1,374 nt of DNA from Naegleria gruberi (lineage: Eukaryota): NCBI GenBank assembly GCA_000004985.1, contig GG739436.1; one strand, given 5' to 3'. Positions 1 to 1,374 of the stretch are shown here, piece by piece. The notes under the pieces were generated by a model. That model did no database searches. It saw only the letters and a program-made list of their open reading frames with translations, and was not told where the DNA came from. The position numbers and the translations under genes are program-made. The first letter of the stretch is position 1; each line of letters opens with the position of its first letter.

Positions 1-265
1 TGGTGATATTTTTTTGTTGGATTTGTACACCTTAATACCAACCGACAATATATAGAACAGTACTCATAAGCTCAGAGCAAGTCATGTCTCGTCGTCCTTA
101 ATAATTCGAACTAGTTGGTGTCTATTATGGAAATCTTGCTCCCTACTCAAGTTGTGCATGCATGATAATGCTAATTGGAAAATAATGTTTAGTATGATAA
201 TTAAAAATATTGTATTATCTTACGTTTGTTCTAAATGATTAATACTAATAATAATATAATTAGTA
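1..265 (-). other. AT-rich 3'-flanking region of the minus-strand gene (putative 3' UTR / transcript end region); no convincing ORF
   Basis: The region is far more AT-rich than the coding region. The only ATG-initiated frames are 5 and 12 codons long. It contains TATATA (49-54), TATATT immediately after the stop, and A/T runs. These are consistent with yeast-type efficiency and positioning elements, but they are not specific in sequence this AT-rich. Confidence 0.35.
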
Positions 266-269
266 TTAA
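239..269. repeat. Perfect 11-bp AT-rich inverted repeat (ttaatactaat / attagtattaa) with a 9-nt spacer, overlapping the stop codon of the minus-strand gene; possible weak hairpin in the 3' end of the transcript
   Basis: Positions 239-249 are ttaatactaat and positions 259-269 are its exact reverse complement attagtattaa. The spacer 250-258 is aataatata. Only one G:C pair is present in the stem, so predicted stability is low. Confidence 0.5.
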
Positions 270-1369
270 GGATCTCCACTACAAACTGCACATCCTGTGA
301 AAATATGTTGTCCTTTCAATCCTTTTGGAATACCCCATTCCCACATGTAGCCATCACCAGACACTAGTTCTTGATCTCCTGAAAAGATGGACATTAGCAA
401 AAATTGTGTTTCATAATCAACATTATGATTCTTTTCATCCTTTTCCTTTTCTTCGTCCTCTTCTTCCTCTTCTTCATCACCATAAATATCAATATCAGAG
501 TTGAAATCTTCCTTTCCGAACACCATTTGTGTTCTATATCGAGGGTTAAATTCATCATTGTGGAACAAGAGTTTAGCAGCATGGCAGTAGGAAGAACCCT
601 CACCATTTCTTCTTTCCAATCCACCCATTTCCTTAATTTGCTTTGCAGTAACATAAATAACAGGTTGTGGTTTCGAACTGTTTGGATTACAATAATTGCC
701 ACATCCTGAAGCTTCTTCTGGACAAAAGAAATAGAGCATTCCACCTTCCTGAGGAACAATTGAATTGGTTCTATCATAATAGGCCAAATGTTGTAGATTG
801 ATCTGAGCTCCAAACATGAATTTCTCCTCAATCTTTGGCCATTTCATTCCCTTTGGTAAATCAGGAGATCCACCAACTTTGGATTCACCAATGGCAATCA
901 AATCATCTGCATTCTGAACAGAGAAACCTTGTTTTTGATCTTCAAATGCATTTCCCCAATAAATTTGCTCAGGCTCCTCAATGTCACTAGAAGAATTAAT
1001 TTCCGCCTCACTCCTATTAGAAATAGAATATTTGAATTGAGGAAACAACTTGCTACAATACTGCTTTGTCAAGGATTCGACAAAGTAATAAATCAACAAA
1101 CCTGATGACTCCTGTTCATTCTCTTGGTCTATTCCTTTCCAATGCGAAACTTCTTTCTTTGGTTTACCAATACACGAATACTTTCCTCTGGCAATCTTGT
1201 TAATGAAGAACTCCCTCCAAAATTCATTTTCCCTTTCAACTGTAACCAAACTTGTTGGAGGAATTGGTGAGAAGCCTAATCTTGACTCTACTATTTCCTT
1301 CCACTGCAATTCTTGGTCGATTACTTGATTGAATTCTTTGCAAATTCTTCTCATCTTGATGGTTGGCAA
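266..1369 (-). CDS. DUF1963/YwqG-like domain protein with an N-terminal extension of unknown function and an internal poly-acidic insert; probably 5'-partial
   Basis: I checked the reverse-complement translation codon by codon and found an uninterrupted 367-codon frame. It ends at TAA (266-268 on the minus strand), with a second in-frame TAA two codons later and then a TAG. The first codon in the window (1367-1369) is TTG and the preceding in-frame triplet (1370-1372) is TGG (Trp), so the frame runs off the window edge. The first in-frame ATG is at 1352-1354 (the M of ...IKMRR...) with A at -3. Motifs I recall as the DUF1963/YwqG signature are GG-x-P-x-LP-x4-WP (aa 166-178, nt ~836-874), AQINL (aa 188-192) and GGMLYFF (aa 209-215), plus a C-terminal GDGYMWEWGI (aa 338-347). 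Coding periodicity and codon bias are strong throughout. Confidence 0.7.
   Translation of the reverse strand: MPTIKMRRICKEFNQVIDQELQWKEIVESRLGFSPIPPTSLVTVERENEFWREFFINKIARGKYSCIGKPKKEVSHWKGIDQENEQESSGLLIYYFVESLTKQYCSKLFPQFKYSISNRSEAEINSSSDIEEPEQIYWGNAFEDQKQGFSVQNADDLIAIGESKVGGSPDLPKGMKWPKIEEKFMFGAQINLQHLAYYDRTNSIVPQEGGMLYFFCPEEASGCGNYCNPNSSKPQPVIYVTAKQIKEMGGLERRNGEGSSYCHAAKLLFHNDEFNPRYRTQMVFGKEDFNSDIDIYGDEEEEEEDEEKEKDEKNHNVDYETQFLLMSIFSGDQELVSGDGYMWEWGIPKGLKGQHIFTGCAVCSGDP
431..481. repeat. Polypyrimidine (plus strand) / polypurine TTC-GAA-type trinucleotide tract, including a perfect 9-bp tandem duplication (cctcttctt x2, 457-474); encodes the acidic insert GDEEEEEEDEEKEKDEK
   Basis: Plus-strand positions 431-481 contain only 4 purines in 51 nt. 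Positions 456-475 are 20 consecutive pyrimidines. The 9-mer cctcttctt occurs twice back to back at 457-465 and 466-474, and on the coding strand this reads gaagaagag gaagaagag (EEEEEE). Confidence 0.85.
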
Positions 1370-1374
1370 CCATC

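Follow-up and report, generated by a model that had tools for sequence, protein, structure and literature searches.

The window analyzed here, 1374 nt of DNA from Naegleria gruberi, is an entire scaffold of that genome and bears one single-exon gene on the minus strand, which joins the remnant of an F-box to a YwqG-type TYPP domain (DUF1963). The coding sequence (269..1372, minus strand) is the sole long open reading frame (ORF) in the window. It comprises 368 sense codons with no stop upstream: the codon at 1370-1372 encodes Trp, bases 1373-1374 form a partial codon, and the frame is still open at the edge of the scaffold. At the other end, the TAA stop (266..268, minus strand) is preceded by a C-terminus (...SGDP) that is the same as that of the N. 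gruberi paralog NAEGRDRAFT_79021. The product has 100% identity with the public model of this gene, P0001 ("predicted protein [Naegleria gruberi]"), which is 362 aa long and starts at the ATG at 1352..1354 (minus strand). The window thus holds the 3′ ≈88% of an N. gruberi F-box/YwqG-TYPP gene, of which about 50 5′ codons lie beyond the scaffold edge. The N. gruberi origin, together with the identification as a truncated F-box–YwqG gene, can be regarded as nearly certain.

An earlier, sequence-only reading of the window had considered the ATG at 1352-1354 as a start. This ATG is codon 7 of the open frame, and its Met belongs to an IKMRR sequence that is kept in the paralog. Neither this ATG nor the TTG at 1369, from which a 367-aa ORF had been counted, is the true start, because the frame stays open to the window edge without an upstream stop. 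Furthermore, the relatives extend further toward the N-terminus with an F-box of which the window keeps only the last third, making the Met internal. The simplest reading is that the public 362-aa model is a 5′-truncated fragment with an artefactual start codon, and this annotation needs correction. Since the scaffold breaks off within the gene, the absence of a Shine-Dalgarno sequence before ATG 1352, which had been counted as a sign of a eukaryotic host, is irrelevant. An intron just upstream of Met 1352 was considered and rejected: the window has no AG acceptor 5′ of the conserved IKMRR, the paralog is intronless, and in a metagenomic near-copy of the paralog (L001) the gene runs uninterrupted on its contig. 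The missing acceptor and the uninterrupted L001 gene argue against an intron and leave a scaffold ending inside the gene as the simplest explanation.

The last third of the F-box and the helix that follows it (WLPTIKMRRICKEFNQVIDQELQWKEIVESRL; 1277..1372, minus strand) were located by alignment with the F-boxes of the homologues. The first 32 residues of the translation (..IKMRRICKEFNQVIDQELQWKEIVESRL) align with the distal "..VCKxW..xI...LxWKxxVxxRL" of the F-boxes in the relatives. In BLASTP, window residues 5-368 matched residues 52-433 of the paralog NAEGRDRAFT_79021 (P0175, N. gruberi, 433 aa) with 45% identity and E = 3e-108, and in a profile search the 362-aa P0001 matched from profile position 48 only. 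Every full-length relative has about 50 additional N-terminal residues that contain the F-box. From these alignments, the first ≈47–51 residues of the protein, with the LPxE start of the F-box, fall outside the scaffold. An N-terminal F-box was found in relatives from N. lovaniensis, Willaertia magna and a metagenomic protist. Six proteins of the Naegleria/Willaertia group (P0003, P0004, P0030, P0031, P0036 and P0045) had Pfam F-box or F-box-like matches above the cut-off, with 31.6, 34.2, 33.7, 35.7 and 35.3 bits for P0003, P0004, P0030, P0031 and P0045, respectively. Among the metagenome proteins, P0039, P0044 and P0162 were at or above the Pfam cut-off and P0116 was below it.

The F-box is followed by a helical linker of about 120 residues (917..1276, minus strand), which leads to the YwqG-type domain. 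The linker includes a family-conserved helix, NEFWxEFFIxKIAxGKY, and residues N49, F51, W52, F56, I57, A61, K64 and Y65 are invariant in the alignment. It also has a variable acidic or serine-rich stretch and low predicted local distance difference test (pLDDT) scores in the full-length structure model. No Pfam match and no known domain was found in the linker.

The YwqG-type domain occupies residues 153-368 of the 368-aa translation (269..916, minus strand). DUF1963 is the YwqG family within the TYPP superfamily (Tsr4, YwqG, PDCD2L, PDCD2), whose members are built from an all-beta unit that occurs twice and bears a GGxP motif as well as a conserved Gln (PMC4275035). The motif series on which the sequence-only reading had based its family call (GG-x-P and so on, AQINL, G-x-LYFF) was found as described: the first repeat contains GGSPDLPKGMKWP, AQINL and GMLYFF. 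The GGxP signature, as defined in PMC4275035, is GGSP in the window protein (residues 167-170; 863..874, minus strand) and lies within GESKVGGSPDLP. The conserved Gln is Q190 of AQINL (803..805, minus strand), which was invariant both in a 28-sequence alignment and in a 14-sequence eukaryotic set.

Profile searches bore out the family call. Pfam DUF1963 (PF09234) matched with E = 1.6e-14 and 55.2 bits against a gathering threshold of 23. The match had been expected to span roughly residues 150-350; it covered residues 158-307 of the 362-aa product and positions 1-143 of the 216 in the profile, i.e., two thirds of the model counted from its start. The rest of the domain, its C-terminal third, is evident at the level of the fold only. 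A hidden Markov model (HMM) built from 40 bacterial-type YwqG proteins gave the window protein 84 bits over HMM positions 43-187 of 299, and profile–profile comparison with YwqG (hhalign) gave a probability of 99.7% across 117 columns. At E ≤ 1, the only other Pfam match was CENP-B_dimeris on the acidic run, a chance match, and there was none to PDCD2_C (PF04194). An NCBIfam scan of the window product matched nothing.

The structure of residues 140-368 was modelled with AlphaFold2 without templates. The mean pLDDT was 78.9, with most of the first repeat at 86–98. The model predicts the two-repeat all-beta fold of Bacillus subtilis YwqG (Protein Data Bank (PDB) entry 1PV5), and 1PV5 was the sole credible match in Foldseek, also when the full-length model was used. 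This is the structural comparison that the sequence-only reading had proposed, and it came out in favor of YwqG. A single-sequence search against the PDB sequences found nothing; 1PV5 was recovered by profile only. The window protein shares GxSKxGGxPDLP, AQINL and GMLYFF of the first repeat with B. subtilis YwqG, and the hand alignment shows a similar C-terminal "GDxG...I....L....F" segment. A Zn-binding CxxC pair was rejected as a family feature, CAVC of the window protein being CAVT in the paralog.

The two repeats are separated by a long acidic loop (GDEEEEEEDEEKEKDEK) that includes the run DEEEEEEDEE (449..478, minus strand). The uninterrupted run is 10 residues long, one fewer than the 11 originally counted. 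The loop has low confidence in the model (pLDDT 47–53). Its length varies among paralogs, it is different in the closest paralog, and it has ≈200 additional residues in N. lovaniensis. In bacterial YwqG, the second repeat conserves "LLGxPxxIQ", "LLLQxDSD" and "WGDxGxxYFxIxxxDLxxxxF". In the window protein, by comparison, the second repeat is beyond HMM detection, an acidic low-complexity loop is present, and the first two of these signatures are unrecognisable; the segment SGDGYMWEWGIPKGLKGQHIF resembles the last one. Three C-terminal strands, QFLLMSIF, YMWEWGI and AVCSG, are predicted by the model at YwqG-like positions.

Just after the first repeat lies a motif, QIKEMGGLERR (608..637, minus strand), which is the most confident segment of the model (a block with pLDDT 98). 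Its consensus is (Q/E)IK(E/Q)xGGL(E/Q)RR. In a regular-expression scan of 182 collected proteins, the motif was present in 20, all from the F-box group of Naegleria, Willaertia or metagenomes, and in none of the remaining ≈160 DUF1963 proteins. The motif thus distinguishes the clade of the window protein from bacterial YwqG. Bacterial YwqG proteins also differ in being stand-alone proteins of about 260–300 aa, whereas the window protein is eukaryotic and has the N-terminal F-box and linker.

Besides the paralog, close relatives include at least five N. lovaniensis and at least five W. magna proteins, with several paralogs per genome; Naegleria, Willaertia and metagenomes account for all of the close relatives. 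A family profile was searched against 1.84 billion cluster representatives and retrieved 2067 DUF1963-type proteins at E ≤ 1e-3, of which just 8 reached E ≤ 1e-30. Outside the clade, the named relatives are "YwqG family proteins" from Bacillus, Brevibacillus, Paenibacillus, Sutcliffiella, Armatimonadota and Bacteroidota, with 35–50% identity over about 60–130 residues. F-box-like and DUF1963 domains were combined in the JGI metagenome proteins P0039, P0044, P0116, P0162, P0180 and others. Two contigs from sample 3300062347 (L003 and L004: Ga0606064_0362 and _0024) have eukaryote-type neighbor genes, encoding an oxysterol-binding protein, CRAL-TRIO, a guanylate cyclase and an F-box–leucine-rich repeat (LRR) protein. 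The gene-dense eukaryote from which they come bears several F-box-like plus DUF1963 paralogs, including P0040 and P0180, with IKxxGGLxRR; P0116 and P0179 are similar JGI proteins with the same motif. The presence of the motif on L003 and L004 indicates that the architecture reaches beyond the named Naegleria and Willaertia genomes. The family is restricted, among named organisms, to vahlkampfiid heteroloboseans, with at least one metagenome protist in addition, and it is multi-copy and fast-evolving in the second repeat. As the sequence-only reading had considered, the gene may go back to an old horizontal transfer: a bacterial YwqG gene acquired once, then fused to an F-box and duplicated, is a possible history that fits these sequence relationships without being proven by them. 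No match at E < 0.1 was found in a library of viral structures, so that no giant-virus or phage relative is indicated.

Some members of the family depart from the common architecture. P0004 (N. lovaniensis, 250 aa) comes to an end just past its first TYPP repeat, and in P0031 (N. lovaniensis) the AQINL strand is absent; either their gene models are wrong or the two are paralogs in decay. P0036 (W. magna, 991 aa) has an extra N-terminal LRR region and an apparent second F-box-like start, both preceding the F-box–linker–DUF1963 unit; this could reflect a fusion of gene models or a tandem architecture.

In F-box proteins, the F-box is the part that binds Skp1, while the C-terminal domain binds substrates and presents them to SCF (Skp1–Cullin–F-box) ubiquitin ligases. 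Since this division of labor is general, we infer that the window gene probably encodes an SCF substrate receptor with the TYPP domain as its target-capture module; we put the probability of this at roughly 0.55–0.6. The full protein would consist of the N-terminal F-box, the helical linker and the C-terminal TYPP domain. The F-box would dock on Skp1 of the SCF ligase, the TYPP domain would serve in substrate recognition by gripping a stretch of the target protein that is extended or disordered, and the captured target would then be ubiquitinated. DUF1963 had been described in the sequence-only reading as a family with no known function, a view that is outdated: the family has been unified with Tsr4 and PDCD2 as TYPP, for which a chaperone-like binding of extended peptides has been proposed and which is often fused to protein-interaction domains (PMC4275035). 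Moreover, the TYPP domain of PDCD2 is needed for binding of the ribosomal protein uS5, and Tsr4 recognizes the disordered N-terminus of uS5 (PMC7736825).

Several observations weigh against this assignment. The F-box of the closest paralog scored just under the Pfam cut-offs (20.2 bits for a threshold of 20.5, and 19.5 bits for one of 24.3). The window itself carries the last third of the F-box only, and a Pfam F-box search (PF00646 and PF12937) with the window fragment gave no match at E ≤ 1, because only about this last third of the ≈45-residue motif lies on the scaffold. The structure model of the N-terminal half is poor, with pLDDT <50. In the domain that would capture the target, the second TYPP repeat was not detected by sequence, both the HMM and the hhalign alignments ending after the first repeat. 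In a hand-made register, the Gln of the second repeat, which sits at the base of a deep pocket in YwqG (PMC4275035), appears to have given way to Met in the window protein, and to Leu in the paralog. With the pocket Gln apparently replaced, the peptide pocket itself is possibly altered. The clade holds the first repeat rigid and varies the second, as would be expected if the second half shapes target specificity.

Another reading is that the window copy is a fragment without function, whether left over from the assembly, produced by the collapse of an allele or derived from a paralog in decay. Its scaffold is very short and breaks off within the gene, and two family members, P0004 and P0031, look damaged as described above. 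Lineage-specific F-box families often include pseudogenes. However, all 368 codons are open, the family-invariant residues are all retained, and codon usage is still typical of the host. The C-terminus matches that of a paralog with only 45% identity to the last residue, which argues for purifying selection. A non-functional copy is consequently unlikely, even if it survives better than the alternatives below.

On a further reading, nothing is missing from the annotated 362-aa protein: it would be a eukaryotic YwqG/TYPP protein that stands alone, begins at ATG 1352-1354 and binds peptides in a chaperone-like role, with no link to ubiquitin ligases. The public gene model does begin at this ATG, the window product lacks a Pfam F-box match, and solo YwqG genes of bacterial derivation exist in Lachancea thermotolerans and Entamoeba (PMC2715888). 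Against this stand the frame that remains open upstream to the scaffold edge, the alignment of residues 5-32 with the distal F-box of all relatives, and the ≈50 extra N-terminal residues with an F-box in all full-length relatives. The start in the public model was forced by the end of the contig. We thus consider a solo protein quite improbable.

A third alternative is a ribosome-assembly chaperone for uS5 of the PDCD2/PDCD2L/Tsr4 type. These proteins belong to the same TYPP superfamily (PMC4275035), with GGxP and the conserved Gln in common with the window protein, and uS5 binding by the PDCD2 TYPP domain (PMC7736825) supplies the sole experimental precedent for a TYPP role, namely binding of a disordered N-terminal segment of a client. 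They constitute a different TYPP family, however. The Pfam match of the window protein is to DUF1963, with none to PDCD2_C at E ≤ 1; there is no MYND insert, a feature of PDCD2 only; and outside the clade, the protein is closest to bacterial YwqG proteins. Whereas PDCD2L and PDCD2 are universal and mostly single-copy, the window family is lineage-restricted and multi-copy. It is also fused to an F-box, on account of which a bound protein is predicted to be ubiquitinated, not escorted to the ribosome as by Tsr4/PDCD2. A uS5 chaperone is therefore very improbable.

Codon usage bears on the origin of the gene. A recount reproduced all of the codon preferences given in the sequence-only reading: Arg is encoded by AGA (8), AGG (3) and CGA (1); TTG accounts for 12 of 19 Leu codons, with CTG and CTT at zero; Pro is encoded by CCA (9) and CCT (8) and no others; Gln by CAA (14) and CAG (6); and Gly by GGA (15), GGT (12) and GGC (3). 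Relative synonymous codon usage in the window coding sequence correlated at ≈0.79 with that of the N. gruberi-type paralog gene (L001) plus seven N. lovaniensis genes, and the preferences for AGA, TTG, CCA/CCT, CAA and GGA/GGT are common to the window and other Naegleria genes. The eukaryotic host deduced from codon usage was thus borne out. The more specific proposal, a budding yeast, did not hold: the identical protein is from N. gruberi, the relatives are from Naegleria, Willaertia and metagenomes, and the codon bias is shared with Naegleria. Bacterial contamination, a very recent bacterial transfer or a budding-yeast origin, for which the predominantly bacterial distribution of DUF1963 (see also PMC4275035) and the superficially yeast-like codon bias might speak, can be dismissed in view of the 100% identity to an N. 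gruberi protein, the Naegleria-like codon usage, the fusion to eukaryotic F-box sequence, the eukaryotic genes that surround paralogs on large contigs of Naegleria and Willaertia, and a bacterial identity of just ≈35–50% over ≈60–130 residues.

F-box proteins recruit many types of C-terminal domain, so that an F-box–YwqG protein is no surprise in principle and the value of the finding is incremental. FBXO3, reportedly described by the Aravind group as a fusion of an F-box and a SUKH/SMI1-KNR4 domain with relatives among bacterial immunity proteins, resembles the window family in having an F-box for Skp1 and a C-terminal protein-binding domain from a mainly bacterial family. The recognition domain is SUKH in FBXO3 and a YwqG-type TYPP domain here. 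A much bolder proposal, which we consider unlikely, is that the F-box–YwqG proteins form a lineage-expanded surveillance system of bacterivorous amoeboflagellates, in which a peptide-binding domain of bacterial derivation would bind peptides of bacterial effectors or toxins (or, more broadly, bacterial-type proteins) and the F-box would pass them to the ubiquitin–proteasome system of the host. If true, this would parallel the logic proposed for F-box–SUKH and give a first functional handle on the binding partners of bacterial YwqG. The YwqG proteins of Lachancea (Kluyveromyces) thermotolerans and Entamoeba are likewise eukaryotic members of a bacterial family that were duplicated after acquisition (PMC2715888). 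Those proteins are stand-alone, ≈260 aa in length and 38–48% identical to full-length Bacillus YwqG (PMC2715888), whereas the Naegleria clade is more diverged, F-box-fused and has its own motif.

The F-box–YwqG fusion appears to be undescribed. In the literature searched, we found no paper describing an F-box–DUF1963/TYPP architecture. The fusions of TYPP listed in PMC4275035 are to LRR, PsbP/Mog1, ankyrin, BRCT, C-type lectin, WGR and MYND, with F-box not among them; the term "F-box" has 0 occurrences in that paper, and TYPP members from Naegleria were not seen in the accessible part of its supplement. The protein and its Pfam domain are already public, and the N. lovaniensis relatives have been automatically named "F-box domain-containing protein". 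YwqG/DUF1963 is a large bacterial family with a crystal structure and no experimental function in the literature searched, and the F-box–YwqG architecture offers a contextual clue for this uncharacterised family. The natural occurrence of the YwqG domain in fusion with an F-box speaks, as contextual evidence, for a protein- or peptide-recognition module, in agreement with the chaperone-like prediction of Burroughs & Aravind 2014 (PMC4275035) and with the PDCD2–uS5 data. For Naegleria biology, the family adds candidate SCF substrate receptors of a small class that evolves fast and apparently makes use of a bacterial-type domain.

The remainder of the window is the 3′ flank of the gene (1..265), which is either 3′ untranslated region or intergenic sequence. 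It is AT-rich, as had been stated, with 29% GC compared to 37% in the coding sequence. No RNA gene (Rfam), tRNA or long ORF was found in this flank, and a scan of the window for repeats gave nothing meaningful. A 15-nt AT-rich inverted repeat (TTAATACTAATAATA / TATAATTAGTATTAA; 239-269) with 93% complementarity and a 1-nt spacer lies across the TAA stop; it could be a 3′-end hairpin or a chance product of the AT-richness. With Rfam at E ≤ 1, the sole match in the window was to snoRNA sR52 (392-463, minus strand; 26 bits against a gathering threshold of 50). This sub-threshold match lies inside the region coding for the acidic run and was rejected as chance. The sole PADLOC match, to Cas12a (15.7 bits; linker residues 64-137), was also sub-threshold and rejected as chance. 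In N. lovaniensis, a gene on PYSW02000003.1 (L002:1-1132, plus strand), ≈5 kb upstream of P0003, gave matches to HTH_OrfB_IS605, OrfB_IS605 and Cas12f1-like_TNB, which mark its predicted product, here encoded by a eukaryotic genome, as TnpB/Fanzor-like. N. lovaniensis is reported to have Fanzor nucleases.

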